Sequence record: SRR31156797_4650
Strand: one strand, 5' to 3'
Length of the DNA: 64,000 nucleotides
Shown: one piece after another, positions 6,451-43,295 of the stretch
How the letters are laid out: each line of letters starts with the position of its first letter
How positions within the stretch are numbered: position 1 is the first letter of the stretch
Position numbers and translations under genes: made by a program
The notes under the pieces: model-generated
What the model saw: only the letters and a program-made list of their open reading frames with translations
Told to the model about the DNA's origin: nothing
Databases searched by the model: none

Positions 6451-6571
6451 GATGGACATAATTCTATCAAAATATCTTTTTTTAGGGAAAAACAACGTCA
6501 AATAAACATTATATATCATCACTAACCATCCTAAATAACACGCTTTTAACAACATTCCTCATTCTGAACAA

Positions 6572-6599
6572 TTGACACAATTCATACCTCTGTTGTAAT
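6572..6599 (+). promoter_or_regulatory. Candidate sigma70 promoter of gltA
   Basis: TTGACA-N16-TGTAAT in AT-rich intergenic DNA. Confidence 0.45.
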
Positions 6600-6759
6600 A
6601 GCAGATGAATAACAAACGAGTCCATAAATCAAGACAGCGCATCGACCGCAACTATCGGCCAAAATCATCGGCCACCTGGCCCAGTCCAGCAAACGAATAT
6701 CATTCTGCCTCCGACATGATCGGAGTCGCTAGGTCGACGGCAAAAGACAAGGAAATGAC

Positions 6760-8067: not shown

Positions 8068-8073
8068 GCTGTT

Positions 8074-8850: not shown

Positions 8851-9038
8851 CGCCCATCGCCTAAAAATAATTCGAATCACGTTCCTGTGGCAAACAAATT
8901 CCAAGAAATGGATTTTGCCGTTATTGTACAAATAGGGGATTAAGGTATACTGTGCGCGAGCTTTAAACGAATTTCTCACTCCGGCCCCATTTATACGACT
9001 GACTCGACCGGAGTTCACATCATACATTGTAGGTACTT

Positions 9039-10706: not shown

Positions 10707-10709
10707 ATC

Positions 10710-11510: not shown

Positions 11511-11532
11511 GCCCCCCCCTGCACAGTAAAAA

Positions 11533-11934
11533 CTACTTGAAGTACTGCTGAAATTCTGCACTAGGTTCGATGTCTGCGTAAATATAAAGCGCAACTCCAT
11601 ACGGATCGAGAGTCGCAAATCCTCGGTCACCCCATGGATGATCCTCAAGCGGCATAATAATCGGCAGTCCGGCCTCGACCAGTCGATCATGCGTTGCATC
11701 GACCAAAGAACAAGACTCCAATGCTATATTATATGTAAGTCCCCCCTTAAAAACTTCCTGCTCAGGAGATTGAGGCTCCATGAACTGTAGCGTGGGACCA
11801 TCTTCTCCAAACTTAAAATTGACATACCACCCACTATCAAACCAGATAGTTGCATTAAAATGAGTACAGTAAAAATCTCGGGCAAGCCCCGCATCGGCAA
11901 CAATGATGCAGGGTGAAACAGTCGATGGATTCAT
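11533..11934 (-). CDS. VOC/glyoxalase family protein
   Basis: RBS GGAGG before the ATG at 11934; ARDFY..F and DHPWGDRGF...DPYG motifs. Confidence 0.85.
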   Translation of the reverse strand: MNPSTVSPCIIVADAGLARDFYCTHFNATIWFDSGWYVNFKFGEDGPTLQFMEPQSPEQEVFKGGLTYNIALESCSLVDATHDRLVEAGLPIIMPLEDHPWGDRGFATLDPYGVALYIYADIEPSAEFQQYFK

Positions 11935-12053
11935 GGTTCCTCCGTTTTTTACAGAACTATCACAAACCCTGGCATCTGCCACGCTGTCATTTCTTCCCCA
12001 AAAACCACTCAACTATCACTTCTCCATCCAGACAAAACACCACGACATTGATG

Positions 12054-28889: not shown

Positions 28890-29415
28890 GGGCTTCTCCC
28901 CGATATATTGTAGCTATTCGAAGTAATCTTGAACTAATGTTCAACCCCGCCACTTCGCCTGCATGCGGATTGACCTGCAACTTAAGTTTACCGCCAACCA
29001 TACGAAAATTAATGACCACTCCCTGACGAAGATTCGCAGGACTTTGCCCGATAGTCAGCACAGGCATTTCTGCTGTCCGCTTCAAAATTGCGGCAGCCTC
29101 TCTTTTGGGCGCGCCATTGATAACAAGAATATGAACACCATCCGCAGGCCATTGCACCAACCGAAACTGCGATGATGAGTCATTGAAATATGGCTTGAAC
29201 TTTTTGGAATCAGTTGCAGCGATGACATACGGTTCGCCCGGTTCCGGGCCTGCCCCTACAGGCCATTTCACATACTTGACCAACCGCTGCACATACAGGG
29301 CCTGAAGTTGTTCACTGGTCGCGGTCAAAGGTTTGTCACCGCCAAGGACTGACACTGGACACAAAAACACTGTCAAAAGAAGAAGCGTTATGATCAAAAA
29401 ATAATCACGCTTCAT
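28879..29415 (-). CDS. YfiR/HmsC (DUF4154) periplasmic protein
   Basis: Signal peptide; YVKWP, PVLTIG, INF, VNP and GLNISSRLLRIA motifs typical of the YfiR family; TAATG overlap with the receptor gene. Confidence 0.85.
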   Translation of the reverse strand: MKRDYFLIITLLLLTVFLCPVSVLGGDKPLTATSEQLQALYVQRLVKYVKWPVGAGPEPGEPYVIAATDSKKFKPYFNDSSSQFRLVQWPADGVHILVINGAPKREAAAILKRTAEMPVLTIGQSPANLRQGVVINFRMVGGKLKLQVNPHAGEVAGLNISSRLLRIATIYRGEAHEQ

Positions 29416-31337
29416 TAGAAGTCCCATGTCATACGTAAATCAACACTCGGGCCGATATGCAACGGAGAATATTGGTTCGTCGCTTCGCCAAGATTTCGAC
29501 CAATCAATTCGAGCATAAGGGTTTCCGAAGCTTTCCATGAGGCATGAGCTTCCAGAGAAAAATAACCGGGCATGAAACGCTCGTCCGGACTAATGGAATA
29601 TCCTGCCAACACATCAAACCCGACATCCTGCATGGGCTTCATGAACGCGTGAAGTTTATATTCACTCGACAATCCTTCCTCCGGCATGGAATCACCTGAC
29701 GGGAAAAAATCGATATTCCGAAGATCTTGATAAACAAGACCAATTGAAGGACTAAGACGCAACCACCTATTCACCGTCCAATCGAGAATAGCTTCAACTC
29801 CATACGCTGAACCTTCAAGTGAATTTGTCAAAGTGGCGGTCCGAGTCGCTCTATCAAAATCGATCATGGCAAGTTGATCGTAATCATTGATATAAAATGA
29901 AATGTCTCCATGGATATCCGAAGTGAAACGCTGACGATATCCGGCTTCATAGGCAATGAGTTTTTCTGTCGTCAGTGAATCCGGTGCATGAACGACGTAC
30001 TCTTTGCCACCATGCTCAATAGAATAACTTCCACTCCGTTGAAACCGTGTATCGGCCCGAACAGCCTTGGATACAGCCAACCAGTATTCCGAATCCTCCC
30101 GAGTATGCAGCAATCGGATCGTGGGTTGAACTTCCACAGGAGTCTGTCCGAAATAATCCAATTTAATTCCAAAAAAAAGAAACAAACTATCTTCAAGGAG
30201 TGTTACTCGATCTTGAACAAACCCATTTGAAGTAAATGTATACCGTCTTTCTTTATCGATAGTAGCCCTGTCTCCGCTTTTGATATCGTCCCAAAAGTAG
30301 CGACTTCCCACTCCCCATGTCAGTCGATGCCGACCGTATTGCTCGGCTGCATATTGTAATTCAGCGTCCAACGTATTAGTCCCGCCGGTCAAATCAGCCA
30401 CGCTAACGAGTTCGCGGGTAAACGAAGTCCTAAGACCCATCCCGGCATCCAACCCTGTCGCCCTATGCCAGGAAAATTGCCCATATCCACCAAATTCATT
30501 TCGAACATGCGGCCTGTAAATTTTTTGTGAACCAGAAGCACCATCATTGATGCTTGATGCCGCAAAGTCCCCTTGTAACGACAACGAATCAGTAAAAGCG
30601 TTCTCCCAATCGACCCGAAAACCACCCTGCTGTTTGACCCAATCCTGAGAGCTTCGATCATCACCCTCACCCGTAATCCAGTCACCGGTCCTGTAACCGC
30701 CGCTGAGATAGCCTCTGTAGGCCACGTCATCAACGGTGTCGCCATACCGAAACAACTGCTCTACGCCGGTTGATCCGGCAAGAGTCACACTCTGCCCGCC
30801 CTGCGTCTCAGCGGCACTTTTAGTAATAATATTGATAACGCCAGTAAAAGAATCTGCACCCCATAAATGGGTCCACACACCGCGCACGACTTCGATACGT
30901 TTCACCATACTGACCGGGATTGTGTTTCCCCAAACCACCCCTGCTGTTGTCGGTGAAGTAATAGGCCGACCATCAAGCAACACCAAATGCTTGTTGCTTA
31001 AAATCCCGTTGAAACCACGAATACCTATGGCCCACTTGTCTGTATCCATCTGAACAACATGCAGGCCAGGGACAAGTTTAAGTGCTTCTGCGATGGTAGT
31101 AGCCCCTGAGCGAAAGATGTCATCTTCGTCCAAAACGGTCACAGCTCCTGCGACCTGCGACAAAGGCTCGGCACGACGAGAGGAGGTAACCACGTCTACA
31201 TCCATCAACTCTTCAAGGCTCAATGAGGCCAAAGGATCGTCTGTATCGGCCCATGCACTGCCAACACAGCATAAAAAAAGACAAATAAGACACAGGCACT
31301 GGACCCGAAAAGCGGACAGCCACCCTCGCACCATCAT
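29415..31337 (-). CDS. TonB-dependent receptor-like outer-membrane protein
   Basis: Signal peptide; LSLEELMDVDV, IRGFN, LVLLDGR and IEVVRG plug motifs; C-terminal Phe (WDF). Confidence 0.88.
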   Translation of the reverse strand: MMVRGWLSAFRVQCLCLICLFLCCVGSAWADTDDPLASLSLEELMDVDVVTSSRRAEPLSQVAGAVTVLDEDDIFRSGATTIAEALKLVPGLHVVQMDTDKWAIGIRGFNGILSNKHLVLLDGRPITSPTTAGVVWGNTIPVSMVKRIEVVRGVWTHLWGADSFTGVINIITKSAAETQGGQSVTLAGSTGVEQLFRYGDTVDDVAYRGYLSGGYRTGDWITGEGDDRSSQDWVKQQGGFRVDWENAFTDSLSLQGDFAASSINDGASGSQKIYRPHVRNEFGGYGQFSWHRATGLDAGMGLRTSFTRELVSVADLTGGTNTLDAELQYAAEQYGRHRLTWGVGSRYFWDDIKSGDRATIDKERRYTFTSNGFVQDRVTLLEDSLFLFFGIKLDYFGQTPVEVQPTIRLLHTREDSEYWLAVSKAVRADTRFQRSGSYSIEHGGKEYVVHAPDSLTTEKLIAYEAGYRQRFTSDIHGDISFYINDYDQLAMIDFDRATRTATLTNSLEGSAYGVEAILDWTVNRWLRLSPSIGLVYQDLRNIDFFPSGDSMPEEGLSSEYKLHAFMKPMQDVGFDVLAGYSISPDERFMPGYFSLEAHASWKASETLMLELIGRNLGEATNQYSPLHIGPSVDLRMTWDF

Positions 31338-32044
31338 TAGACAGCCGCTCCCTGTGAAGTGGCGAGTAGATATCCTCTTCCTCGAATAGTCTTGATGCTG
31401 ACGTGTGCCCCCAGCTTTTTCCGCAGATTACTCATATGAACATTAAGGACGTAATCATCAAACTCAACACCCCGACCAAGCGCCTGCTCCATAAGATCAT
31501 TTCGTTCAACCACGGCCCCCATATTCAAGGCTAACTGTTCAACGATATCATACTCCGTTGAAGTCAAATGCACGGGATTGTCATCAAGGGTCATGTTGCG
31601 GGTATTTCTATCAATGACCACATTACCAAATTCAATGCTCTTCTTCCTGAGCATCTTCACGGTCCCGCCTTCTGATCGACTGGTGTCATACCGGCGAAGC
31701 ACGGCCCGAATTCTCGCCAGCAACTCACGAAGCGGAAAAGGTTTGGCGATGTAATCATCAGCCCCCATTTCCAATCCTACCACCCGGTCAATCTCTTCTC
31801 CGCGCCCGGTCAGCATGATCACCGGAATATTTGAATTAGATCTCAAGGCAGAAAGAACATTGAATCCACTCAGGTCAGGCAACATGACATCAAGCAGAAT
31901 CAGCTCATACGACTTTTTCTCGGCAGCCTGAATACCAGACTCACCTGTATACATTGAATCAAGGGTAAACCCTTCGCTTTGAAGATAGCTGGACAAAAGC
32001 TCCGCAACCTCAGGATCGTCATCTATCAACAACAGATCACTCAT
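31337..32044 (-). CDS. OmpR/CpxR-family response regulator
   Basis: LIDDD, LLDVMLP, GADDYIAKPF, VHMSNLRKKL and TIRGRGY motifs. Confidence 0.95.
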   Translation of the reverse strand: MSDLLLIDDDPEVAELLSSYLQSEGFTLDSMYTGESGIQAAEKKSYELILLDVMLPDLSGFNVLSALRSNSNIPVIMLTGRGEEIDRVVGLEMGADDYIAKPFPLRELLARIRAVLRRYDTSRSEGGTVKMLRKKSIEFGNVVIDRNTRNMTLDDNPVHLTSTEYDIVEQLALNMGAVVERNDLMEQALGRGVEFDDYVLNVHMSNLRKKLGAHVSIKTIRGRGYLLATSQGAAV

Positions 32045-32229
32045 ACCGCCCCCTTTTCATTTGATTATATAGCTTTAGAAGAAACGCTGAAACTCATATA
32101 ATGTTAATTTATATAAAGAAGGTTAAGACACATTAATAATCACTGTATTTTTCTCAATATCTCATGCAATTTTTATGCAGGGAAAAATTTTCCCATGTAA
32201 ACGGATTGCCCACCCTCCTCCGTATAGAG

Positions 32230-32245
32230 GGGCATTGAATGTGCG
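32230..32245 (+). promoter_or_regulatory. Candidate sigma54 promoter of the flagellin gene
   Basis: GGGCATTGAATGTGCG has GG-N10-GC spacing. Perfect palindrome GGGAAAA-A-TTTTCCC upstream at 32180-32194. Confidence 0.45.
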
Positions 32246-32271
32246 TTTTGCTCACCGTGAACAAAACCACC

Positions 32272-32298
32272 GCATGGATGCACCCACTTTCAAGGAGG
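32272..32298 (+). promoter_or_regulatory. CsrA-binding hairpin plus RBS in the flagellin leader
   Basis: GCA-TGGA-TGC (GGA in the loop), with a second GGA in the RBS AAGGAGG. Confidence 0.6.
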
Positions 32299-32303
32299 AA
32301 AGT

Positions 32304-33158
32304 ATGTCTCTGGTCGTTAACAACAACTTAATGGCAAACTCGGCAGCCCGGTATCTGAACAACGCATACAGTGCTTTGGGCACCTCAACGGAACGCCTGT
32401 CTTCTGGTCTGCGCGTCAACAGCGCAGCGGATGATGCCGCTGGACTGGCAGTCCGCGAGCTTATGCGCTCCGACATCTCAACCCTCAACCAAGGGGTCAG
32501 GAACGCCAATGACGGCATTTCCATGATCCAGACAGCAGACGGAGCGCTTTCCGTCATTGATGAAAAGCTCATCCGTATGAAGGAACTGGCCGAGCAGGCC
32601 GCCACCGGTACGTACACCGACAGTCAGCGTGAACTTATCGACGATGAGTATCAGGCCATGGCTTCGGAAATTACCCGTATCGCCAATGCTACTGACTTCA
32701 ACGGCATTTACTTGCTCAACGGCAATCTGTCCGGCGACGGACTGACAGTTCACTTCGGTACTGGCAACGATGCCACTGAGGACAAGTACGCCATTACCAT
32801 CGACAATTGCACAGCATCAGCTCTCGGGGTGGGCTCAAACAGCACTACCGGAGTCGGCGCTGCCGTTTCTACTCAGGAACTCGCCCAGAATTCTCTGGAC
32901 GCACTCAACTCGGCCATCGTGTCCAAGGACAAAGTCCGAGCCAACCTGGGTTCAATGCAAAACAGACTCTCGGCAACCATTTCCAATCTGGAAGTCCAGG
33001 CGGAAAACCTTCAGGCTGCCGAATCCCGCATCTCCGATGTGGACGTGGCAACTGAGATGACCGAGTACACCAAGCAGCAGATCATAACCCAATCTGCCGT
33101 GGCCATGCTCTCACAGGCCAACTCACTCCCGCAGATGGCCTTGTCACTCATCGGCTAG
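32304..33158 (+). CDS. fliC: Flagellin (284 aa, minimal D0/D1 type)
   Basis: ERLSSGLRVNSAADDAAGLA, NANDGISMIQTADGAL and AESRISDVDVATEM motifs. RBS AAGGAGG places the start at 32304. Confidence 0.96.
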   Translation: MSLVVNNNLMANSAARYLNNAYSALGTSTERLSSGLRVNSAADDAAGLAVRELMRSDISTLNQGVRNANDGISMIQTADGALSVIDEKLIRMKELAEQAATGTYTDSQRELIDDEYQAMASEITRIANATDFNGIYLLNGNLSGDGLTVHFGTGNDATEDKYAITIDNCTASALGVGSNSTTGVGAAVSTQELAQNSLDALNSAIVSKDKVRANLGSMQNRLSATISNLEVQAENLQAAESRISDVDVATEMTEYTKQQIITQSAVAMLSQANSLPQMALSLIG

Positions 33159-33176
33159 TCCACTCCTTCTCCAACA

Positions 33177-33213
33177 TGAGGACCGACTCGGAACCAATCC
33201 GGGCCGGTCCTCA
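33177..33213 (+). terminator. Long stem-loop after fliC
   Basis: TGAGGACCG...CGGTCCTCA with an inner TCGGA/TCCGG pair; weak U-tract. Confidence 0.6.
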
Positions 33214-33451
33214 CTCTTTACATCGTCCAAACTCCCGACGCGGTTACATCTTTTTTCCCATCGGCGTTTTTTTCCGGCCTGCACTTTCCCTCACGGAGAA
33301 CAAATGGTTTTACCCCACTCTCAACTATCTTTTTTTATTAAGAATTATTTATTTTCATTTCATCAGAACGGATTCATCAAAATAAAACAGATCAATTCTT
33401 CATTTTTTAAAAATATTTACTAACATATTTTTTATATAAGTAAATATTAAA

Positions 33452-33467
33452 CGGTATTCATATTGCT
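33452..33467 (+). promoter_or_regulatory. Sigma54 (-24/-12) promoter of the sigma-flgDEKL-fliD operon
   Basis: CGGTATTCATATTGCT (GG-N10-GC with TTGCT). Predicted +1 near 33478, just before RBS AGGAGG; preceded by a very AT-rich tract. Confidence 0.6.
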
Positions 33468-33491
33468 CATTTTGTAGTCAGGAGGCGAACA

Positions 33492-34073
33492 ATGAGTAGT
33501 ACACTAGTTGAAATAGAAAAGAGTTTTGGCGAGATATCATATGATAATCTCTTTAAAAAGCACTCTAAACTCATATTCAAACTCATTTATAACTTCATTA
33601 ATGCAAAAAATATTAAACTTCATAGCAGTGAAGTGGATGACATCTTTCAAGAAATTGCATTAAAAATTTTTAAAAATGACTATCTTTCTAAATACAATAA
33701 AGAAAAAAGCTCATTTATTACATGGCTTAATATCATATGTAGAACAACTACAATTGATTACTACAGAAAGAAAATTCGTTGGACAGAGTCTGTACTCACC
33801 GAATCACACAACAGCTCCGAAGCGACAAGTGTGGACGCAGCCATATTCAGTCTCCCGGCGGGAGTTCTTACAGCCCGACAAACGGAAGTCATAACACTCC
33901 TCTTTAAGGAAGGAATGGTGGCCTGCGAAGTCGCAACAGCATTGGGAATCACAACCAGAACCGTCAGAAGCATCAAATTCCAAGCCCTAAATAGACTTCG
34001 TGATTACTACGGCGCCACGCCAGCACTTCACGAAATAGGCATCACGGAAACACACAGGAGGAAGGTCTCATGA
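33492..34073 (+). CDS. ECF-type RNA polymerase sigma factor
   Basis: Region 2 DDIFQE...FITWLNIICRTTTIDYYRK; region 4 LTARQTEVI...EVATALGITTRTVRS...ALNRLR; 193 aa; ATGA overlap with flgD. Confidence 0.85.
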   Translation: MSSTLVEIEKSFGEISYDNLFKKHSKLIFKLIYNFINAKNIKLHSSEVDDIFQEIALKIFKNDYLSKYNKEKSSFITWLNIICRTTTIDYYRKKIRWTESVLTESHNSSEATSVDAAIFSLPAGVLTARQTEVITLLFKEGMVACEVATALGITTRTVRSIKFQALNRLRDYYGATPALHEIGITETHRRKVS

Positions 34074-34756
34074 GTATCGACACCACAAGTTATTACGACT
34101 CACTGGTGCAGTCTTCTGCGCCTGATCCGGTCACCATCACCACTGATACTGAAGCCAGCTCCCTCTCCTCGGATGATTTCATCACGTTGTTGCTGGCCGA
34201 GTTACAATATCAGGACCCAACAGAGCCTGTGGACAACGCACAGATGGTCGACCAGATGACCCAATACTCCCAGCTCGAACAGATGACGGAGATGAATGAA
34301 AAAATGGATGCCCTGACCGAAAGTCTTGGTTCCATGACCGCCGCCAACGGCTTGGACTACCTCGGCAAACAGGTCGAAGCGGATGGATCAACCATCAGCG
34401 TATCGGGTGACTCCATTTCCTCTCTTTATTTCGAACTGCCCGAAGACGCCGCCTCAGTGACCTGCAACGTCTACGACAGCAATGGTTCCATTGTGGACAC
34501 CGAAACCTACTCCGAACTGAATGCCGGAATCAGTGCATTCACGTGGGACGGCACCGATTACAACGGCGACACAGCGAGCAACGGCATATACTACGTGGTC
34601 GTTTCCGCACAAGACAGCAATGGAGCGGATATCGACGTATCCACCACAACCACGGGCACCGTTATCGGCATCAGCAATACCGATGATGGCGTCATCCTTT
34701 CTCTCGACGACGGACGCACCGTGAACATGCTGGACGTCACATACGCCACTTCTTGA
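34070..34756 (+). CDS. flgD: Flagellar hook-capping protein FlgD (acidic paralog)
   Basis: DDFITLLLAELQYQDPTEPVDN...QYSQLEQ and FTWDG motifs. Confidence 0.93.
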   Translation: MSIDTTSYYDSLVQSSAPDPVTITTDTEASSLSSDDFITLLLAELQYQDPTEPVDNAQMVDQMTQYSQLEQMTEMNEKMDALTESLGSMTAANGLDYLGKQVEADGSTISVSGDSISSLYFELPEDAASVTCNVYDSNGSIVDTETYSELNAGISAFTWDGTDYNGDTASNGIYYVVVSAQDSNGADIDVSTTTTGTVIGISNTDDGVILSLDDGRTVNMLDVTYATS

Positions 34757-34796
34757 TCAAAATTAATCAACTTTCTGTCAATACAAGGAGATAGAC

Positions 34797-36347
34797 ATGA
34801 GTATCACAGGATCAATGTACGCAGGGATTTCCGGTCTTCAGGCACAAAGTCAGGCGACTTCGGTGGTCAGCAGCAACCTCGCGAACTCCACAACCACTGG
34901 CTACAAAAGTTCATCCATAGCTTTTGAAGACGTTTTCTACAGCACGGTCTACGCAGGCAACAGCGCTGACCAGGTCGGTAACGGTGTATCCGTGGCCTCC
35001 ATCAATACTGATTTCTCTCAGGGTGCATACCAATCCACCAACTCAGTCACTGACGTTGCCATCAACGGTGATGGATTCTACATGCTCGTGGACCCAGACA
35101 CAGACAATACCTATTACACCCGCGCCGGCAACTTCACCTTTGACACGAATGGCTACCTCGTAGATGCCCACGGCAATCGTGTTCAGGGATGGGAAATGGC
35201 AGACGATTCCATCTCCGGCGGGTTGACCGATATCCAACTGGACAACTCTCAGTCCCCGCCCAACGCCACCAGCGAAATCAGCTTCTCGTTGAACCTCGAT
35301 TCTACATCCACGGACAACAGCACATCCACCACCAGCCCATACACAGCACTGTTTGATGCCTATGACGGTACGGCAGAACCACCCATGGACGACTCCCGTT
35401 ATGCATATCAGACAACCATCTCGACATATGACGAGAATGGTGCCGCCCATGACATGACCATATATTTCGACCCCGTGGAAACCACTGACGGCGATCTGGT
35501 TTGGGAATACGTCCTCACCTGTGATGCCAGTGAAGACATGCGCGATTTCAACGGCACTGAAATGAGCACCACAAGCGGTGCGGGCGCACTCATGACCGGC
35601 ACCATGACGTTCTCCTCTTCCGGTGATCTGCAAAGCATGACTGCGTTCACTCTCTCGGACACACCGACGGACCCGACCGATCCCATGGCTGCCGAGAACT
35701 GGGAACTGGCGGAATTCGACACCAACGGGCTACCCATCTTCGACACCAATTTCACCGGCTCCGACGAAAATCAGGAAATCACACTGGACCTCGGCATCTC
35801 GAACTCGGATTACAGCACAGGCACCGGTTGGGACACCACCGGCGGCATTGACTCACTGGATGACTTGAACGCGGCAACCGTTACCGATGACCTACCTTCA
35901 TTCAATACGGGCGTTCTTGCCACAGGCGCCACCACCAGCACGACCTCCGGGTCCGCTACATTCAGCCTGAATCAGGACGGTTATGCTCCCGGCGTGCTCA
36001 TCGATGTTTCCATCAGCGAAAACGGCGTGCTTTCAGGTCGATATACCAATGGGCAGACACAAGAACTGTACACTCTCGGACTGGCTGACTTCACCAACAC
36101 ACAGGGTCTCTATTCTGAAGGAAGCAATCTGTACTCGGCGACCACGGAATCCGGACAGGCCTATATCGGCACTCCCGGCTCCGCAGGCTTCGGCTCCATA
36201 GCCTCCAACGTTCTGGAACAATCCAACGTGGACACAGCCACGGAACTGACCAACCTCATCATTATCCAAGCCGCATATCAGGCCAACTCCAAGGTCGTCA
36301 CTACGGCAGACACTCTGCTCCAGACAGCCATTGGTATGAAGCGATAA
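34797..36347 (+). CDS. flgE: Flagellar hook protein FlgE (acidic paralog)
   Basis: NLANSTTTGYK, DVAINGDGF, YTRAGNF, QDGY and LEQSNVD...YQANSKV motifs. Confidence 0.95.
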   Translation: MSITGSMYAGISGLQAQSQATSVVSSNLANSTTTGYKSSSIAFEDVFYSTVYAGNSADQVGNGVSVASINTDFSQGAYQSTNSVTDVAINGDGFYMLVDPDTDNTYYTRAGNFTFDTNGYLVDAHGNRVQGWEMADDSISGGLTDIQLDNSQSPPNATSEISFSLNLDSTSTDNSTSTTSPYTALFDAYDGTAEPPMDDSRYAYQTTISTYDENGAAHDMTIYFDPVETTDGDLVWEYVLTCDASEDMRDFNGTEMSTTSGAGALMTGTMTFSSSGDLQSMTAFTLSDTPTDPTDPMAAENWELAEFDTNGLPIFDTNFTGSDENQEITLDLGISNSDYSTGTGWDTTGGIDSLDDLNAATVTDDLPSFNTGVLATGATTSTTSGSATFSLNQDGYAPGVLIDVSISENGVLSGRYTNGQTQELYTLGLADFTNTQGLYSEGSNLYSATTESGQAYIGTPGSAGFGSIASNVLEQSNVDTATELTNLIIIQAAYQANSKVVTTADTLLQTAIGMKR

Positions 36348-36371
36348 CGGTCACGATATCGGGAGGGCGAC

Positions 36372-38384
36372 ATGATCAACAATCTGTATAATATCGGACT
36401 GAAGTCACTGCAAAATGCGCAAGTGTCCATCGACAACGCGTCGAACAACATCGCCAATGCAGACACGCCCGGATACCAACAGACAGAGGCCGTTTACGAA
36501 ACCGGCGATTCCATCACCATACAAGGTCTCACTGTCGGCACTGGTGCGGACGTGGTGGCCATCCAGTCGGCATTCGATGAATTTGTGGAAGCGCAATATC
36601 TCGACGCCTCCGCAGATTTGGCCTGTCAAAACGCCGCCTATCAGTACCTGTATCAACTCGACTCACTGCTAAACCAAACGGACGGTGGACTCAGTACATC
36701 GCTGGATGATTTCTTCCTGGCCTGGAATGAATTGAGCACTGATCCGGACTCTCTGTCCGCACGTGAAGCCCTATTGGGTGAAACGCAATCATTAATCTAC
36801 GGTCTCAATTCCACAGCAGAACAACTTGAAGGTGTGGAAGAAAGCATCAACACGGAAATCCAGAACGAAATAAGCGAAGCCAATCAACTCATTGAAGACA
36901 TAGCCCTGTCGAATGCGGCCATTGCAGCCAATCCAAATGATCTTCAGGCCATTGCCGAACGCGATCAGATGATCCGTAATCTCGATGCGATCATCGGAGT
37001 CAACGCGCTTTACAAATCCAATGGGGAAGTCACGATCATGACCGAAGAGGGATATACCATGGTGGACGGAACTGAAACGCACAGCCTTGTCTATGGAGAT
37101 CCGAATGCTACGGCTTCACTGATTCGTGACTCTGATTATGATGGAACTATCGAGTTCTCCGGGTCATCAAGTGAAGAACTCCTTCTTGAATTCGTTTCTA
37201 CCGGCCCGGACGGAACAGCGGAATTCAAAGTCTCCACCGACGGCGGCAATACCTGGTTGGAAGACGAAAACGGCGACACCATGCTCTACACGGCGGGCGA
37301 CGAGAATTCCCCAGTTGAAATCGAAGGGGTAGAGATATGGTTTGAGGGCAGCACCACAGACCATACAACAGGTGATCGATACGCCGTTACCCCCAAAAGC
37401 GGCCTGTATTGGGAAACCGGTGATGGTTCATTACAAAACATCACCCCCATGACCGATGCATCGGGGCAGGGAGTCTCCGGACGCACTTCAGGAGGAAGTC
37501 TGGCAGGGCTTTACACAGCACGAGATGACACAGTTCTCCCCACCCTTGACGCACTGGATGACATAGCCAATGCCCTCATCTGGGAAGTCAACGCCGAACA
37601 TGCGCAGGGGGCCGGACTGGAACATCACACAGGACTGACTGGCAGCTACAGCATGGAGGATTCCAGCGCCCTGCTCAGCAACAGTGGTCTCACATATGCC
37701 GACAATATTCAGGCAGGAGAGCTTGAATTGGTGACATACAACGCAGAAGGAACGGTCTCCACTTCGGCTGTCATATCCGTTGATCCGGCCACGAATTCCA
37801 TGGATGACATCATCAATTCCATCAACACACTCTATGCAGGAGAACTCACGGCATCCGTCAACGGTGACGGGCAACTGCAAATCGCAGCAGCCTCGGACGT
37901 AAGTTTCGAGATTGCAGGAGACTCATCAAACCTTCTTGCCGCGACAGGCATGAATACCTTTTTCACGGGTTCGGATGCTTCGACCATTGCAATAGACAGT
38001 TACATCGCAACCGACACCGCACACATCAACAGCGGAGTCGTTGGTGACGACGGTCTGGTTTCATCTGGAAACAACGATGTAGCCAACGCAATGATGACTC
38101 TTTCAAGCGAGAACGTCTCTGTAGGGTCTATGACCACGACTCTCAGTGCTGCCCTTTCAACGCTTGTATCTGACGTTGGTTCAGCAACCTATTCCACAGA
38201 ACTCAAGCTGACCTATGCCCAGACTTCAGCCCAGTATCTTTACGACCAACAGGCCTCTGTCAGTGAAGTAAATGTTGACGAAGAGCTTCTCGATCTCACC
38301 AAATATCAACAACAATACCAAGCTGCTGCAGAAATAATCTCTGTCACGCGAACCATGATGGATACCATTTTGGACATGGTCTAA
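36372..38384 (+). CDS. flgK: Hook-associated protein FlgK (acidic paralog)
   Basis: NNIANADTPGY, GGSLAGL and VNVDEE...YQQQYQAAA motifs. Confidence 0.92.
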   Translation: MINNLYNIGLKSLQNAQVSIDNASNNIANADTPGYQQTEAVYETGDSITIQGLTVGTGADVVAIQSAFDEFVEAQYLDASADLACQNAAYQYLYQLDSLLNQTDGGLSTSLDDFFLAWNELSTDPDSLSAREALLGETQSLIYGLNSTAEQLEGVEESINTEIQNEISEANQLIEDIALSNAAIAANPNDLQAIAERDQMIRNLDAIIGVNALYKSNGEVTIMTEEGYTMVDGTETHSLVYGDPNATASLIRDSDYDGTIEFSGSSSEELLLEFVSTGPDGTAEFKVSTDGGNTWLEDENGDTMLYTAGDENSPVEIEGVEIWFEGSTTDHTTGDRYAVTPKSGLYWETGDGSLQNITPMTDASGQGVSGRTSGGSLAGLYTARDDTVLPTLDALDDIANALIWEVNAEHAQGAGLEHHTGLTGSYSMEDSSALLSNSGLTYADNIQAGELELVTYNAEGTVSTSAVISVDPATNSMDDIINSINTLYAGELTASVNGDGQLQIAAASDVSFEIAGDSSNLLAATGMNTFFTGSDASTIAIDSYIATDTAHINSGVVGDDGLVSSGNNDVANAMMTLSSENVSVGSMTTTLSAALSTLVSDVGSATYSTELKLTYAQTSAQYLYDQQASVSEVNVDEELLDLTKYQQQYQAAAEIISVTRTMMDTILDMV

Positions 38385-38400
38385 CCTCAAAGGAACAGTC

Positions 38401-39594
38401 ATGCGTATCAGCACATCACAAATATTTTCCCAGTCTCTCAACCAGATGAATACCGCGCTCAATGATGTAGCGGAACTCAACATGATGGAATCCACTCAAA
38501 AAAAAATCAACAGGCCGTCAGATGATCCCGCCGGAATGGCGAATATCATGAACCTGAACGCTTACGATCAATCCCTGAGTGGCTACATGGATAACTGCGG
38601 TACTGCCACGGACAGTCTTGATTTGGCAGATCAAGCATTAATGCAGGTCAGTGAAAATATCATAGCTGCCATGGAACTGGCCGAACAGGGATCGACCGAA
38701 ACATACACTGATGAACAGCTCCAGATGATGGCTCTGGAAATGGAAAGCTACCTCGACAGTATACTCGCCATTTCCAACACCCAAATGGGGGCGGACTCTC
38801 TCTTTGCAGGAGACGATCTCGGCAACAATGCATACGAAATGGGCCTTGGAGTCACGTTGCCAAATGACTCATTGAACGACGCGGACTTTGCTTCCATGAC
38901 CGGTGAAATCGACAGCACGGTCCACGTCCAATTCAGTGAACCAGGTGTCATCGGAACTGATGAAATCGACTACCAATATTCCACCGATAACGGTCAGACA
39001 TGGACAACCGCCACACTTGCGGCTGGCGACACGACCATTGATGTCGGGACCGCCCAGATTGATTTTACCACAGGTACCTCGGTAACACCGGCTGACGGCA
39101 ACGGGAATGGTACGGAATTCTATCTGCGAGAAACGGCCCATTACACCGGAAGTGACACAGCCATGTCCGTTGCCATTTCCGAAAACACCAATGTGGATAT
39201 GACCACCGTGGGCAGTACTGTCTTCGGCGGTGTCGACCCGGCAACCAACATGCCTTACACAGAACCCAATCTCTTCGAGACCTTAAGCGACTGCATCGTC
39301 TACATGGAAAACGGCGATCAGGATGCAGTGGCCGCATGCCTCGACGATCTGCGCGACGCTCATGAAAATGTCGAAACGGGTTCAGCCAACGTCGGCGCGA
39401 GAGAAAACAAGATTTCCTACACTGAGCAATCCTTGGGGCTGATCCGGGAAGTGACCACAAACAGTATCAGCCGCGAGGAAGACGCCAACGCAACTCAACT
39501 GATTGTCGAGCTTGAACAGGCCAATTACGTCTATGAAGCTGTGCTCAGATCGACTGCTGATATCATGAAAATGAGCATACTCAATTATATTTAA
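38401..39594 (+). CDS. flgL: Hook-associated protein FlgL (acidic paralog)
   Basis: MRIST, KKINRPSDDP, LFAG, VGAREN motifs; C-terminal SILNYI. Confidence 0.93.
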   Translation: MRISTSQIFSQSLNQMNTALNDVAELNMMESTQKKINRPSDDPAGMANIMNLNAYDQSLSGYMDNCGTATDSLDLADQALMQVSENIIAAMELAEQGSTETYTDEQLQMMALEMESYLDSILAISNTQMGADSLFAGDDLGNNAYEMGLGVTLPNDSLNDADFASMTGEIDSTVHVQFSEPGVIGTDEIDYQYSTDNGQTWTTATLAAGDTTIDVGTAQIDFTTGTSVTPADGNGNGTEFYLRETAHYTGSDTAMSVAISENTNVDMTTVGSTVFGGVDPATNMPYTEPNLFETLSDCIVYMENGDQDAVAACLDDLRDAHENVETGSANVGARENKISYTEQSLGLIREVTTNSISREEDANATQLIVELEQANYVYEAVLRSTADIMKMSILNYI

Positions 39595-39604
39595 GGAGGA
39601 AGTC

Positions 39605-41326
39605 ATGGGATACGTCTCTTCTGTTTCCAGTAATGTCATTGCATACGAGCCTGTTACGACCTCTGGTGAAGTCTCATTCTCAGGACTGGGTAACGGGACG
39701 GACTTCCAGGAAATCATCGACGTCACCATTGATTCCGAAAGCTATCAAAAAGAAGAGTACGAAGCCCAAAAGACTGAAACAGAATACATAATCAGCCTTT
39801 TGGAACAGTTGGAAAGCGAAATGGATGAACTCAACACCTCGCTGAAAGACTTGGACGAACCTGACGAATTCTACACCATGGAAGGAACCAGCAGCGGCGA
39901 TGAGGTCGATGTGGAAGTCACTGGCGAAGCGGATGTTGGCGTACACACTGTCATTGTTGACCAGTTGGCCCAAAATGACATCTGGATAAACAGCGCACAA
40001 GGATACGATGCGGAAACTACTGTTGTCGCAGATACGGCCACAACTCTGGATATAACATTTCAGGGAGACACCATTTCCATTGATGTAGCCGCCGGGACCA
40101 CTCTTCAGGGACTTGTGGACACCATCAACGGCAGCGTGGCCGCACGCGACAAGGTCGAGGCCGACCTCATGTTTGACGGCGACAGTTATTACTTCGTCCT
40201 GAAAAGCACCGACTCCGGCGAAAATAACGCCATCACCATCGACAGCACGGGTTCACTGAACGGCATGGACCCGACTGGGTTCGCCCACACCCAGACAGCG
40301 CAAAACTCAAAAATCAAGGTAGATGGATTCCCGGATAATCCAAACCAATGGATAGAACGCGACACCAATTCCATAGATGACGTAATAAACGGCATGACCC
40401 TTGATCTCAAAGAGACAACTGGAAGTGATGGAGTCAAGATATCGGTGGATTACGACACTGACGGGATGCTCGACACCATCATGGATGTGGTAGCCGACAT
40501 GAACCAGATCATTCTCGACATTCAGGTTCTGACAGGTCGCGTCACTGAGGAGGAAGACCCGGAAACGGAAGCCTATACAATCGACAACTACGCCATGGAC
40601 ATCATGTACAACGAACTCAAAAGCATCCTGTCATCAGGCGCACTCGGGTTCACACGATATGACGAAGATGAAGGTGGAGATTATTACAACGCTCTGTCAC
40701 AAATTGGATTTTATACTGACACGGATGAAGGATCTGACACATTCGGTCAATTGCTCGTGGAAGAAGACGAATTACAGGAAGCCTTGGACACCGATCCCGA
40801 AGCTGTGGCCGCATTATTTTCCGAAAGCGGTGTTGGCGAATCAGACAGTGACGACTTCCAAGTCATCTCTGTCATCGATTCCGTAACGCCTCCGGGTGAT
40901 CATTCGGTTGAATATACCATTTCCGGTGGAGCGATCACCTCGGCAACTATTGACGGCAAAGAAGCTGAAATTGACGGCTGGACCATTCTCGGCACCGATT
41001 CGACCTCAACCGGTTTATTTATCTCGGTGGGAGACCATAGCGACGGGGACTATTCTGGCACGGCACGGGTAAAGCAGGGCAAAATCGGTGAAATATCAGA
41101 CGCCCTTGATGCCATGTCAGATGAAGATACTGGAACCCTGTCCATTCTCATCAAAAACTATGAAGAAAGCGTCACTAGTCTGGACAATCAGATATACAAT
41201 GAAGAAAAACGACTCGACACATTGGAAACATCACTGACACGCAAGTACGCTGCTCTCGATGCGACTTTAAGCACTTACGAAAACCTCAGCGCCATGCTCA
41301 CGAGTCAATTGGCACAGCTTGATTAA
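39605..41326 (+). CDS. fliD: Flagellar filament cap FliD (acidic paralog)
   Basis: FSGLGNGTDF, VDQLAQ, AQNSKIKVDG, LSQIG motifs; C-terminal coiled coil KYAALD. Confidence 0.92.
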   Translation: MGYVSSVSSNVIAYEPVTTSGEVSFSGLGNGTDFQEIIDVTIDSESYQKEEYEAQKTETEYIISLLEQLESEMDELNTSLKDLDEPDEFYTMEGTSSGDEVDVEVTGEADVGVHTVIVDQLAQNDIWINSAQGYDAETTVVADTATTLDITFQGDTISIDVAAGTTLQGLVDTINGSVAARDKVEADLMFDGDSYYFVLKSTDSGENNAITIDSTGSLNGMDPTGFAHTQTAQNSKIKVDGFPDNPNQWIERDTNSIDDVINGMTLDLKETTGSDGVKISVDYDTDGMLDTIMDVVADMNQIILDIQVLTGRVTEEEDPETEAYTIDNYAMDIMYNELKSILSSGALGFTRYDEDEGGDYYNALSQIGFYTDTDEGSDTFGQLLVEEDELQEALDTDPEAVAALFSESGVGESDSDDFQVISVIDSVTPPGDHSVEYTISGGAITSATIDGKEAEIDGWTILGTDSTSTGLFISVGDHSDGDYSGTARVKQGKIGEISDALDAMSDEDTGTLSILIKNYEESVTSLDNQIYNEEKRLDTLETSLTRKYAALDATLSTYENLSAMLTSQLAQLD

Positions 41327-41580: not shown

Positions 41581-42042
41581 TTAGGCACTTACATCCAATC
41601 CAGTTGATAAGGATTGATTATAGTCACCGCCAAACATGGCGTCCTGCATTCGGCCATACTGTTCAATGCCTTGGGCTTGATTATCGCCGGAGTTACCTCC
41701 GGTCATATCCATCAACTGTTGGAAAGCCTGAGAGCCTCCGTTAAGTTTAATACCACCCAAGCCATTGCCCCCACGTCCCGCGTCAAGTTCTTCCTGCGAC
41801 ACAAAACCATCTTCATCGGTATCCAATGGGTCAAGTTCTTCGGTACTGTCCGAAGAATCTGAGGCTTCAGAAGAGGATGCGCCAATCTGACTCAAAAGGT
41901 CATCACTATCGGCATCCAACGCATCCGCAAAATCCGAACTTTCTGACGACGCTTCGGGCGGGGGCGGAGGCGACTGCATGCCACCCTGCATTCCCATCAT
42001 TCCGGCCATGGAACTCATCGAACTCATAGAGCCAATTTCCAT
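41581..42042 (-). CDS. Low-complexity acidic EF-hand protein (153 aa)
   Basis: RBS AAGGAG, ATG at 42042. Met/Ser/Gly-rich N-terminus, poly-Pro, degenerate loop DADSDDLLSQIG and canonical loop DTDEDGFVSQEE. No signal peptide. Confidence 0.8.
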   Translation of the reverse strand: MEIGSMSSMSSMAGMMGMQGGMQSPPPPPEASSESSDFADALDADSDDLLSQIGASSSEASDSSDSTEELDPLDTDEDGFVSQEELDAGRGGNGLGGIKLNGGSQAFQQLMDMTGGNSGDNQAQGIEQYGRMQDAMFGGDYNQSLSTGLDVSA

Positions 42043-42233
42043 AAGGCATCTCCTTGAATCATCCACTCCCGTTTTCACGGCCCGGCAACAGCCGATATGA
42101 CTGTCTCCCCTCTCCAAAGGCGGGCGTGCGAAAAGGAAGCGAGGTACTTGATACTATTATCGCATACCCCACCCAGAACGTTACTAGGATTTTATTAAGA
42201 AGTGTTCAGAAAACCGGAAGGTCGAACCTGCCA

Positions 42234-43295
42234 TTACAGTTGAACAGTATTCAAAACCACGGAAAGAGCCTTGAACCAGAACTCAACATCATCGCCGTGT
42301 TGCAAGTCAAGATTCCTGGCACTCTGTTCAGAAATAAGCGCACACACGTCAGAACCATCCGGTAGGCGCCCCAACACTTCTGAGAGCACGGGAGAATCGG
42401 TCACACGAATAACAGTCCCCTTGAATCGATTCCTCGCACTGCCAACCGGTGTTTTACGGCACGAAATGACGTTGACCAGCGGGGCCTTGACTGTAGCAAT
42501 GACAGGCGCACCTTTCACGAGCTTCAAATTCCGAAGACTGTCTGCGGTAATAACGGCGGAAAGTATCATGCCCGATCTTGTTTCCATCGTCACTTCCGCC
42601 ATGACCGAATCCTCGACAACACCGACAACATGACCAACAAAAGAGTTCCGCGCACTGGTCCGTTTACGCATGACATTATGGGCTGTCCGCACAATGGACT
42701 GCATATCACCTGTCGAAAACTGTTGGAAATTCGCCGTCAAATCGAGCGAAGACTGACCAAGGACTTCCTTAACAATCGTGATGGGGACACCGCTGCGAAG
42801 CATCTCCACGGCCCGTGTGTTGCGCAAAGATTTTGGACAAACATGGTCTTTGGTCAATCCGCATTCCTTCCCGCGAGCATAACAGATACGCCGAAAGTAC
42901 CCAGGGTCAACTTGAAAAAACGTCCCTCGCAAGCCACATCCCAACGGCCCTTCAAGAGCTGCCATTACCTCGGTAAACAACTCGTTTGAAAGTGGCACTT
43001 CCCGAATTCTTCCTTCCCGTCCCAAACGAACAAACGGTCCTTCAGCATCAAAGGCGGTTGTATCATCAAGAGAAAGTATCTCTCCTAAGCGCGCACCTGT
43101 ATGCCTGAGCATCAAAAAGATGAGCCACATGCGCTCCCTTGCCTGCACACTGTCCGCACGAACTGCCGCGATCTTCCACTCCTTGAACGCCTGTTCAAAA
43201 TCACGCATTTCAGACGGTTCCAGATAATTCACATGCTCCGACACATTAAAAAAGTCTCGGGGGTAGGCCTTGCTGGATGATTTGACACTGCTCAT
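42234..43295 (-). CDS. tunR: TunR-family Mo/W-responsive regulator (inactive tyrosine-recombinase fold plus 2 TOBE domains)
   Basis: TGARLGE and a degenerate box II, followed by two SARN TOBE/Mop repeats; divergent from modCAB. Confidence 0.85.
   Translation of the reverse strand: MSSVKSSSKAYPRDFFNVSEHVNYLEPSEMRDFEQAFKEWKIAAVRADSVQARERMWLIFLMLRHTGARLGEILSLDDTTAFDAEGPFVRLGREGRIREVPLSNELFTEVMAALEGPLGCGLRGTFFQVDPGYFRRICYARGKECGLTKDHVCPKSLRNTRAVEMLRSGVPITIVKEVLGQSSLDLTANFQQFSTGDMQSIVRTAHNVMRKRTSARNSFVGHVVGVVEDSVMAEVTMETRSGMILSAVITADSLRNLKLVKGAPVIATVKAPLVNVISCRKTPVGSARNRFKGTVIRVTDSPVLSEVLGRLPDGSDVCALISEQSARNLDLQHGDDVEFWFKALSVVLNTVQL

Follow-up and report, generated by a model that had tools for sequence, protein, structure and literature searches.

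Why should a bacterium carry a second set of flagellar hook, junction and cap proteins from which lysine and arginine have nearly vanished, when an ordinary set is encoded elsewhere in the same genome? The question is raised by positions 27357-41326 of a 64,000-nucleotide stretch of sequence record SRR31156797_4650 (hereafter the window), which was analysed together with a reference genome of the same species (G001, 99% identical proteins). The host is a sulfate-reducing bacterium of the Desulfovibrionaceae with the outer parts of its flagellum encoded in a second, separately regulated set, and the names on close homologs suggest that the genus of G001 is Pseudodesulfovibrio. The region forms an island of accessory genes for the flagellum of the Desulfovibrionaceae. 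At its core stand five genes, referred to below as the cassette:

34070-34756, + strand: FlgD, hook-cap protein (Pfam FlgD PF03963 70.6 bits, FlgD_ig PF13860 69.9 bits, FlgD_tudor PF13861 36.1 bits, all above cut-off)
34797-36347, + strand: FlgE, hook protein (Pfam Flg_bb_rod 40.4, LlgE_F_G_D1 52.4, FlgE_D2 79.4 and Flg_bbr_C 59.0 bits, all above cut-off)
36372-38384, + strand: FlgK, hook-filament junction protein 1 (Pfam FlgK_D1 143.8, Flg_bb_rod 23.9 and Flg_bbr_C 31.3 bits)
38401-39594, + strand: FlgL, hook-filament junction protein 2 (TIGR02550 equivalog 183.7 against a cut-off of 127.2; Pfam Flagellin_N)
39605-41326, + strand: FliD, filament cap (Pfam FliD_N 54.6 and FliD_C 108.4 bits, above cut-off; Flagellin_IN)

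The nearest solved relative of FlgD is Salmonella FlgD (7bhq, E 1.4e-20). FlgE scores 307.8 with the NCBIfam model of the FlgE/F/G subfamily (TIGR03506, cut-off 70.25) and stays below the cut-offs of the species-level FlgE equivalog models of NCBIfam, for example 310.6 against 400. An AlphaFold monomer model of FlgE built from 38 sequences has predicted local distance difference test (pLDDT) values of 81-97 at residues 81-470, with low-confidence or disordered termini as expected for a monomer. In a Foldseek search the model came closest to hook chains of Salmonella (E 1.5e-24 to 6e-23) and to the FlgE31 crystal structure 1wlg (template modelling score 0.70 on the target).

The initial annotation of this DNA had described FlgD, FlgE, FlgK and FlgL as extremely acidic and purged of Lys and Arg, and a recount reproduced its figures exactly. 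Lys and Arg together (K+R) account for 3 of 228 residues in FlgD (two Lys and one Arg, against 39 Asp and Glu; net charge -36), 9 of 516 in FlgE (net -59), 14 of 670 in FlgK (net -90) and 12 of 397 in FlgL (net -52). FliD, which had been called strongly D/E-rich, indeed has 121 Asp and Glu (D+E 21.1%) and a K+R count of 23 in 573 residues (net -98). These five proteins have the lowest K+R among the 55 non-overlapping open reading frames (ORFs) of at least 150 residues in the window, the remaining 50 having a median of 9.8% and a minimum of 4.5%. Neighbouring exported proteins are ordinary: the periplasmic ModA has a K+R of 12.8% and an isoelectric point (pI) of 9.9, and an outer-membrane receptor a K+R of 8.9%. 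The shift is therefore neither genome-wide nor shared by exported proteins in general, in agreement with the earlier argument from ordinary neighbours against a genome-wide halophilic adaptation, and no acidic shift of the halophile type was found in other proteins, exported ones included, among the ORFs of the window.

How do the paralogs of the same cell compare? The ordinary set of G001 has a K+R of 8.2% in FlgD, 5.7% in FlgE (4.7% in a third FlgE), 7.7% in FlgK, 6.5% in FlgL and 8.5% in FliD, so that the comparison with the genome's other flg paralogs and orthologs sets 1.3-4.0% in the cassette against 5.7-8.5% in the main set. Family-wide, the medians of the main paralogs are 6.7% for FlgD (4.5-8.8, n=19), 6.0% for FlgE (4.5-6.9, n=19), 7.1% for FlgK (4.3-8.6, n=30) and 7.1% for FlgL (3.7-8.5, n=30, with a few residues missing at locus ends). 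Canonical Desulfovibrionaceae FlgD, FlgE, FlgK and FlgL, with these medians of 6.0-7.1%, thus do not share the composition of the cassette proteins, and the window values of all four lie under every main-paralog value of the family sample. At main-paralog frequencies the binomial probabilities of the window K+R counts are 4e-4 to 5e-9.

The baseline of these families is itself low. In E. coli the K+R is 3.0% in FlgD, 4.5% in FlgE, 6.2% in FlgK and 8.2% in FlgL, and two FlgE proteins of Planctomycetota have 3.3-3.6%. A HMMER search with FlgD against 1.84 billion representatives gave 13,425 matches, the best 150 of which were examined. Among these 150, the 99 FlgD-sized clusters have a median K+R of 5.1% (range 0.4-12.9%); 14 of the 99 fall below 2%, three of them non-acidic with a D+E of 5-8%. 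The occurrence of K/R-poor FlgD in other lineages indicates that the near-absence of these residues in FlgD arose more than once, and given the low family baseline the window represents the extreme of a continuum. What is distinctive is that five co-encoded proteins are shifted alike while ordinary paralogs are present in the same cell. The best FlgD matches of the representative library also include giant proteins of 1,292-4,065 residues (P0122-P0124, P0127, P0146, P0148, P0162, P0170 and P0196), which carry 9-17 tandem FlgD Ig-like domains and have an ordinary K+R of 6-12%.

Does the cassette then belong to a second flagellum? Together with the flagellin encoded beside it, it duplicates in full the parts that are exported by the flagellar type III apparatus and assembled outside the cell. 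G001 encodes three FlgE, two FlgD, two FlgK, two FliD, one FlhA and one canonical FliA; its flagellin search gave three strong matches, plus two FlgL and one weak match. Rod genes of the FlgF/G type occur once among the FlgE-query matches of this genome, and the main FlgD, FlgE, FlgK, FlgL and FliD genes are dispersed over three places. A second export apparatus, such as that of a lateral-type system, was not found: G001 and a further genome, G037, each have a single FHIPEP (FlhA) match. Since there is one FlhA and an ordinary set is kept elsewhere, the cassette is most likely an alternative exterior on a shared basal body and not a second flagellar system.

In G037 (1.9 Mb, one contig), FlgD, FlgE, FlgK and FliD are each encoded once, and their genes follow a small sigma-factor gene in the order of the cassette. 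Its FlgE falls inside the cassette clade, and the genome also has FlhA, FliA and flagellins. As its sole set is of the cassette type, the cassette proteins can probably serve as the only exterior on a basal body of this family. Another genome, G146, encodes FlhA twice and carries a further FlgD-E-K cluster that is rich in K and R; this cluster (L084, 1591-5603) is cassette-like in its gene order and near neutral or net basic, with a K+R of 13.0% in FlgD and 9.7% in FlgE.

The remaining genes of the island lie upstream of flgD:

33492-34073, + strand: sigma factor resembling the extracytoplasmic function (ECF) type, heading the operon; consists of regions 2 and 4 alone (Pfam Sigma70_r2 and Sigma70_r4)
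32304-33158, + strand: cassette flagellin, 284 residues, D0/D1 only, start set by alignment (Pfam Flagellin_N and Flagellin_C; K+R 6.3%, net -15)
31337-32044, - strand: OmpR/PhoB-type response regulator, divergent from the flagellin gene (best NCBIfam matches all under equivalog cut-offs)
29415-31337, - strand: outer-membrane protein resembling TonB-dependent receptors, with a Plug domain (Pfam Plug; NCBIfam TOL_0244 376 bits, below its cut-off of 645)
28879-29427, - strand: YfiR/HmsC-like (DUF4154) periplasmic protein (Pfam 82.2 bits against a cut-off of 24.9)
27357-28889, - strand: sensor histidine kinase, last gene of the divergent regulatory operon (Pfam CHASE8, HAMP, HisKA, HATPase)

The stop of the sigma gene overlaps the start of flgD and the subsequent intergenic gaps measure 10-40 bp, and therefore the six genes from the sigma gene to fliD form one operon, beside which the flagellin gene is monocistronic. 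The sigma factor scores 64.2 with the ECF superfamily model (TIGR02937, cut-off 42.9) and is of ordinary composition (K+R 14%, pI 9.2). Its assignment to FliA/WhiG (sigma-28) was rejected, since the FliA_WhiG model gives 28.3 against a cut-off of 189.6 and matches region 4 only; the canonical FliA sits elsewhere in G001 (245 bits).

The K/R-poor composition is not a peculiarity of the window genome but a clade trait of a cassette that is conserved in many genera of the Desulfovibrionaceae. Of 201 genomes of the family, at least 19 have a listed FlgE match of 60% identity or more, and at least 46 have one of 50% or more. Around 20 of the best FlgE matches 20 kb were fetched, and the order FlgD-FlgE-FlgK-FlgL-FliD is found in 19 of these 20 loci; the twentieth (L055), which was fetched only to FlgL, agrees that far, and the reading frames are intact in all 20, in L055 as far as FlgL. 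A quick FlgE tree, in which E. coli is a very long branch and the rooting is unsure, places the window FlgE in a clade of 11 loci with 100% support in the Shimodaira-Hasegawa-like approximate likelihood ratio test (SH-aLRT), the G001 locus counting for both the window and G001. Within this clade the sigma gene stands directly upstream of flgD in 11/11 loci, and one or two flagellin genes precede it in 10/11, none being found in the fetched stretch of L048. Eleven cassette flagellins from the nine clade loci other than L047 and that of G001 are 79-89% identical to the window flagellin, those of L047 69-70% over a partial alignment. The full regulatory operon lies beyond the flagellin in nine of the 11 loci. 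In these the full-length kinase ortholog, the YfiR-like protein and the Plug-domain receptor are each kept in place (9/11), and a homolog of the response regulator adjoins the cassette in 16 of the 20 loci, with 38-99% identity. The locus L047 (G146) differs in two respects: two long flagellins of 594 and 572 residues (3837-7675) stand before its cassette instead of the 284-residue D0/D1-only type, and it has neither the Plug nor the YfiR gene, the regulator and a partial kinase match being kept.

Across the clade, with ORF starts trimmed to the first Met near the alignment start, the K+R is 0.5-2.6% in FlgD, 1.4-3.8% in FlgE, 2.2-5.0% in FlgK, 2.0-5.5% in FlgL and 2.6-5.9% in FliD. The best 120 FlgE homologs in a large protein collection have a median of 2.2% (range 1.2-7.7), and the genus names among them include Maridesulfovibrio, Halodesulfovibrio, Paucidesulfovibrio, Nitratidesulfovibrio (1.9 and 2.5%) and Megalodesulfovibrio (2.8%). 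Contigs of four further data sets (runs X2, X3, X15 and X6) carry almost identical cassettes. Within the genus the cassette is accessory, being present in five of seven genomes; in the other two, the complete single-contig genome G174 and G005 (99% complete), every FlgE match is of the main type, and G005 has one FlgK. The span of composition among the loci is wide. L054 lies at the low end, with 0.9% in FlgD, 1.7% in FlgE, 2.6% in FlgK, 3.4% in FlgL and 3.1% in FliD. At the opposite extreme, L056 (G024, 4343-11958) has the cassette-like order FlgD-E-K-L-FliD in a K/R-rich, net basic form, with 13.5, 8.7, 9.8, 9.3 and 14.6%, respectively. According to PMC4641369, the flagellar operons listed for D. 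vulgaris Hildenborough include no cassette, and its functional genomics is therefore not transferable; DVU0316-DVU0310, considered as a cassette of that strain, were rejected, being flgB-fliI in the same source. No description of the cassette or of its composition was found in open-access papers or bioRxiv, subscription journals lying outside the search.

With this distribution at hand, could the cassette be a halophile-style exterior for high ionic strength, kept beside an ordinary low-salinity set? Many holders bear genus names that we associate with marine bacteria (Pseudodesulfovibrio, Maridesulfovibrio, Halodesulfovibrio, Oceanidesulfovibrio), high D+E with low Lys is the classic halophilic signature, and two sets with a sensor system would suit switching. 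However, the other exported proteins of the window, ModA and the receptor, are not acidic, the main FlgE of the same genomes is ordinary (4.5-6.2%), and the cassette FlgE is just as depleted in Nitratidesulfovibrio and Megalodesulfovibrio, which we take to be non-marine. Moreover, Arg is depleted as much as Lys, unlike in typical halophilic proteins. Salt adaptation therefore seems quite improbable.

Where in the proteins have the charges been lost? Columns were counted as conserved and basic if 70% or more of the ordinary paralogs have K or R there. Of these, the window-type proteins retain K or R at 6 of 19 in FlgE, 2 of 7 in FlgD, 8 of 21 in FlgK and 7 of 19 in FlgL (23 of 66 in total), and six of the nine Lys and Arg that remain in FlgE are invariant in every group. 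The initial annotation had pointed to replaced basic positions in two motifs, and both replacements are borne out by the alignments. The Arg of the FlgE motif Q-R-x-(F/Y)-Q-A-N is Ala or Ser in 12/12 sequences of the window clade (Ala in the window), whereas the E. coli protein, all 19 main FlgE and all 10 other cassette-type FlgE retain it. The Arg of the FlgK motif G-Y-S-R, present in 29 of 30 main FlgK, is Gln only in the window and G001, that is, in one of the 11 clade loci. The FlgE residue in question, A492, aligns with E. coli R379. A phmmer match joins window FlgE 383-514 to 271-402 of the Salmonella chain 6jzt_A; the two stretches are of equal length, so the match was taken as ungapped and A492 as the counterpart of residue 380. 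In Salmonella FlgE, I376, R380 and Y382 are part of a C-terminal export signal, as described in PMC10936197. The Ile and the Tyr are kept in the window FlgE and the Arg aligned with R380 is lost.

Charge location was assessed by FlgE domain segments. From main to clade FlgE, K+R falls from 7.0 to 2.7% in the N-terminal D0, from 3.2 to 0.6% in residues 41-87 (Dc), from 7.7 to 2.6% and from 7.6 to 1.0% in the first and second parts of D1, from 4.0 to 1.4% in D2, and from 9.7 to 6.9% in the C-terminal D0. D+E rises only in the first part of D1 (10.5 to 15.9%) and in D2 (8.9 to 16.5%). In solved hooks D0 is the innermost and D2 the outermost domain, and D0 is buried in the assembled hook. The signal thus has two parts, a purge of cationic residues along the whole chain and a diffuse acidification of the outward-facing parts. 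Conserved acidic gains and losses nearly balance (4 and 3 in FlgD, 7 and 5 in FlgE, 16 and 13 in FlgK, 6 and 7 in FlgL), and such few fixed gains, offset by losses, would speak against specific Ca-, Fe- or mineral-binding sites.

This bears on a proposal of the initial annotation, namely selection for a polyanionic appendage that would bind cations or minerals (Ca, Fe, lanthanides) or need them for its assembly. Net charges of -36 to -98 per subunit, the acidic outer D2 of FlgE and an adjacent EF-hand-like acidic ORF would all fit. The acidic residues are diffuse, however, with no fixed sites evident; the EF-hand ORF is limited to this species among the 20 loci; the filament, which offers the largest surface, is not polyanionic; FlgD is only transiently present on the growing hook; and the loss of K and R at buried D0 positions is left unexplained. 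The parts of the proposal that stand are the purifying selection (see below) and the anionic D1 and D2 of FlgE (in D2, D+E 16.5% and K+R 1.4%). Specific mineral binding is not supported, and the trait is not unique to this genome; the adjacent flagellin, which would form the bulk of any appendage, has a K+R of 6.3%, and the main signal is cationic loss that includes the inner D0. Cation binding is accordingly the most improbable of the adaptive explanations considered here. The EF-hand-like ORF (41581-42117, - strand) encodes 178 residues with a K+R of 4.5%, a D+E of 18% and a D-x-D-x-D-G loop. With the XopAW family of calcium-binding effectors it scores a weak 38.6 bits, below the cut-off of 120, and its ratio of nonsynonymous to synonymous substitution rates (dN/dS) is 0.36 on 7 differences.

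Other residues change as well: His, Asn, Gln and Trp are lower, and Ser, Thr, Ala, Asp, Glu and Tyr higher, in the cassette proteins. All nitrogen-bearing side chains (K, R, H, N, Q, W) are thus reduced, as would be expected if the cassette served to save nitrogen and cost on proteins that the cell does not get back. Side-chain nitrogen per residue, cassette against main, is 0.105 and 0.231 in FlgD, 0.159 and 0.265 in FlgE, 0.183 and 0.323 in FlgK, 0.177 and 0.305 in FlgL, and 0.150 and 0.268 in FliD, and it is one quarter lower in the flagellin. By tabulated amino-acid costs, the mean synthetic cost is 20.1-20.7 against 21.1-21.8 ATP per residue, about 1 ATP lower. The K/R-poor yet non-acidic FlgD of other lineages also fits economy. 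Smith and Chapman (2010, PMC2932507) report that external flagellar proteins use cheaper residues regardless of their abundance, Lys and Arg being among the dearer ones; compared with its main paralogs, which are themselves cheap, the cassette saves about a further 1 ATP per residue and adds the charge shift of the outer domains. The saving of about 5% is small, however, Tyr, which is expensive, rises, the increase of D+E in the outer domains is not predicted by economy, and one lineage has reverted to a K/R-rich set. FlgD, FliD, FlgK and FlgL are made in a handful of copies per flagellum, so that the savings would be negligible compared with flagellin. Flagellin changed least and the low-copy parts most, which lowered the standing of nitrogen sparing, and as the cause of the composition we consider economy or elemental sparing improbable, if slightly less so than salt adaptation.

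Could the composition have arisen without adaptation, by mutational bias, relaxed constraint or the composition of a foreign donor? The G+C content of the cassette is about 3-7 points above that of its immediate flanks, and the cassette is accessory in the genus. Nevertheless, the five genes are under strong purifying selection, with dN/dS values against G001 of 0.026-0.081 at synonymous distances (dS) of 0.08-0.19. Base composition is not the cause, since Lys, with its AT-rich codons, and Arg, with GC-rich ones, are lost together. Order and frames are intact in all 20 loci (L055 to FlgL), and the co-transcribed sigma factor, a cytoplasmic protein, keeps a K+R of 14%. The FlgE proteins closest to that of the cassette come from the family itself, and those after them are 34-44% identical. 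Non-adaptive origins are thus already largely refuted, and we give them very little weight. The sigma gene itself has 84% DNA identity to G001 (dS 0.83), compared with 96-99% in its neighbours (dS 0.04-0.19), and appears to be an allele exchanged by recombination. The preceding 140 bp (33330-33470) are extremely AT-rich, and the contigs of run X6 end in this stretch.

The change is concerted. Across 18-19 genomes the K+R values of the five proteins covary (Spearman rho 0.76-0.92, with P values inflated by kinship), and the K+R of the flagellin (4.9-7.1%) does not track them (rho 0.21-0.45, not significant). The cassette proteins also diverge faster than the flagellin, with 44-77% against 79-89% identity in nine clade loci (L039-L046). 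Rapid divergence of parts that are single points of failure, with little effect in flagellin and with loss of K and R rather than gain of acids as the systematic signal, is what might be seen if the weak point of the flagellum were being defended: removal of Lys and Arg would abolish trypsin-like sites or receptor epitopes, or the spare set would evade flagellotropic phages. The losses include buried D0 segments, however, which proteases and phages would not reach (the burial being taken from established structures), and His, Asn and Gln also fall. Defence in either form appears no more probable than salt adaptation.

When would such a set be used? The cassette lies next to a sensor system and has a private sigma factor, which suggests that it is deployed conditionally. 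Four elements of the upstream sequence bear on its regulation:

33452-33467, + strand: sigma-54-type promoter (GG-N10-GC, ending in TTGCT), with the ribosome-binding site of the sigma gene about 25 nt downstream
32272-32281, + strand: GCATGGATGC hairpin in the 5' leader of the flagellin gene, its loop containing GGA, followed after about 20 nt by the GGA-containing ribosome-binding site
32199-32226, + strand: promoter-like AAAC-N18-CGTATA upstream of the cassette flagellin, conserved in alignment A2
32181-32193, + strand: inverted repeat GGAAAAATTTTCC, fitting the motif GG(A/C)A-N5-T(G/T)CC of DVU1063, a lead only

In the sigma-54-type promoter the GG is invariant in 9/9 orthologous regions, and TTGC is present in all of the eight that extend to the site (alignment A1). 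AAAC-N18-CGTATA matches once in the window, where 0.05 matches are expected, and is found in exact form upstream of the cassette flagellins of eight loci (L038-L040, L042, L043, L046, L068 and L071). We take its AAC/CGT pair to resemble the ECF consensus. The simplest cascade compatible with these sequences would run from sigma-54 to the ECF-like sigma factor and from there to the cassette flagellin, the latter link being suggested by the promoter; RpoE6 and FliC2 of Azospirillum (PMC12826043) offer a similar case. The flagellins adjacent to main flgE (L077, L080, L081, L083 and L090-L092) are preceded by a conserved TTGGCA-N7-TGC, which is of the sigma-54 and not the sigma-28 type. Sigma-54-type and ECF-like flagellin promoters thus make at least two promoter classes for flagellins in the genome. 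The core columns of the GCATGGATGC hairpin are invariant in 10/10 sequences (alignment A2); the hairpin looks to us like a CsrA site and presumably resembles the CsrA/FliW-type control of flagellin mRNA. A repeat like GGAAAAATTTTCC (GGGAA/GGAAA, a T/A-rich spacer, TTCC/GCCC) stands at the same place in the window and in four of nine other sequences of alignment A2. PMC4641369 assigns GG(A/C)A-N5-T(G/T)CC to the flagellar enhancer-binding protein DVU1063, and the pattern has 13 matches in the window against 5.7 expected, so that a single site is weak evidence. The full-length kinase ortholog kept beside the cassette was found neither in the two cassette-less genomes of the genus nor in G037, which has the cassette set only, and this pattern of co-occurrence suggests that the kinase governs the choice between the sets.

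What, then, has removed the cationic residues? We tentatively favour a second exterior for one motor in which they were purged by electrostatic selection on export and on the surface close to the cell, a reading that we find plausible without calling it probable. Its specific form, with two stages acting on the unfolded chain and on the finished surface, is more doubtful still. In the first stage, an unfolded exported chain with few cations and a large net negative charge would be aided and not hindered by the inside-negative membrane potential at the export gate, and would avoid sticking in the narrow channel. In the second, the finished hook, junction and caps would be uniformly anionic on the outside near the cell surface. 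The chain-level part is proposed because the loss is chain-wide and reaches buried D0 positions, because FlgD is the most extreme protein and because low-copy parts are affected; selection at the export stage would explain why buried D0 and the transient FlgD are affected and why copy number is irrelevant. The surface part is proposed because of the acid gain in D1 and D2. An electrophoretic idea for acidic residues in Sec-type translocation is stated in the discussion of PMC3195256.

Several observations weigh against this explanation. The electrophoretic effect is described for Sec-type translocation, and we met no account of it for flagellar type III substrates. Flagellin, the most exported subunit, keeps a K+R of 6.3%, compared with 7.3-8.8% in the flagellins beside main FlgE (complete or near-complete proteins; two fragments of 104 residues have 11.5 and 12.5%), and a flagellin so little changed fits an export-driven explanation poorly. 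The rod proteins FlgF and FlgG, which are passed by all exports, have an ordinary K+R of 7-8%. The K/R-rich, net basic set of L056 shows that the lineage can go the other way. The sigma-54 promoter and the DVU1063-type repeat would fit plain co-expression with the flagellar regulon equally well. Finally, the burial of D0 in the assembled hook, on which part of the argument depends, is taken from established hook structures.

A further possibility goes beyond electrostatic selection. The envelope-sensing two-component system and the private ECF-type sigma factor might switch the cell from its ordinary exterior to the nearly cation-free set, whose chains would be tuned for export and assembly under a compromised membrane potential or envelope. 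Such a swappable exterior is speculative and rather unlikely, though less so than economy, salt or defence. If true, it would give a hook with a different surface and different mechanical properties.

How does the cassette relate to known systems? FlgD, FlgE, FlgK, FlgL and FliD of Salmonella and E. coli (hook 6jzt, 3a69 and 6k9q; FlgD 7bhq) belong to the same families, with the same fold as predicted for the cassette FlgE. The E. coli FlgD, FlgE, FlgK and FlgL are also acidic and K/R-poor, but the K+R of the cassette is 2-3 times lower still, and unlike in these bacteria the cassette has Ala at the position aligned with R380, Gln in FlgK, and its genes grouped with a private sigma gene outside the flg/fli operons. 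The main paralogs, which presumably share the basal body, are 35-46% identical to the cassette proteins and of nearly equal lengths. Main FlgE forms a separate clade (99% SH-aLRT in the quick tree), and the promoter of the flagellin beside it is of the sigma-54 type, like that of the cassette operon.

Dual polar and lateral systems, as in Vibrio and Aeromonas, have two differently regulated sets of hook, junction, cap and filament proteins, and their motor, rod and export apparatus are also duplicated. The cassette shares with them the two exterior sets, but G001 has one FlhA. In the YfiBNR system of Pseudomonas, periplasmic YfiR acts together with a CHASE8 sensor with GGDEF output and with the OmpA-like YfiB. 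The island similarly pairs a YfiR-like protein and a CHASE8 sensor with an outer-membrane protein; its reading as a YfiBNR-like module was rejected, the output being HisKA/HATPase with an OmpR-type regulator and the outer partner a Plug-domain protein. Closer in gene content is the RpoE6 cluster of Azospirillum brasilense, in which, by the account of the cluster in PMC12826043, an ECF sigma factor stands with FlgK, FlgL, FliD and FliS as well as with FliC2 and controls a small flagellin. That cluster belongs to a different phylum, the same account reports neither FlgD or FlgE nor a compositional anomaly for it, and an anti-sigma factor is encoded beside rpoE6 there, whereas none is evident at the cassette. 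The families of the island are therefore known, and the cassette and its composition are new variants. No description of a second exterior that is linked to an envelope sensor and lacks a motor of its own was found in open-access papers or bioRxiv. Downstream of the island, a gene at 42234-43295 (- strand), which adjoins a molybdate-type ABC transporter, has a partial match to the phage integrase family (residues 133-189) and, at its C-terminus, two TOBE domains; for a ModE-like regulator this is an odd fusion.

The question addressed by this locus is why hook, junction and cap proteins are acidic and what restricts the charge that unfolded substrates can carry through a gate driven by the proton motive force and a 2-nm channel. 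If the cause were mere economy, the cassette would be a marked but unexceptional case of a trend already known. In any case it is a natural experiment: one cell encodes two full sets of five proteins, one of them with cationic residues at hardly more than the invariant positions, and related genomes span the whole charge range up to a net basic set. In culturable, non-pathogenic bacteria the system allows testing of charge and export energetics, of hook mechanics and surface chemistry, and of the R380-type export signal. If the exterior were swapped in this way, the charge content of type III substrates would be an evolved parameter of export and assembly, and exterior swapping would be a new mode of flagellar plasticity, apart from dual flagellar systems and multiple flagellins.

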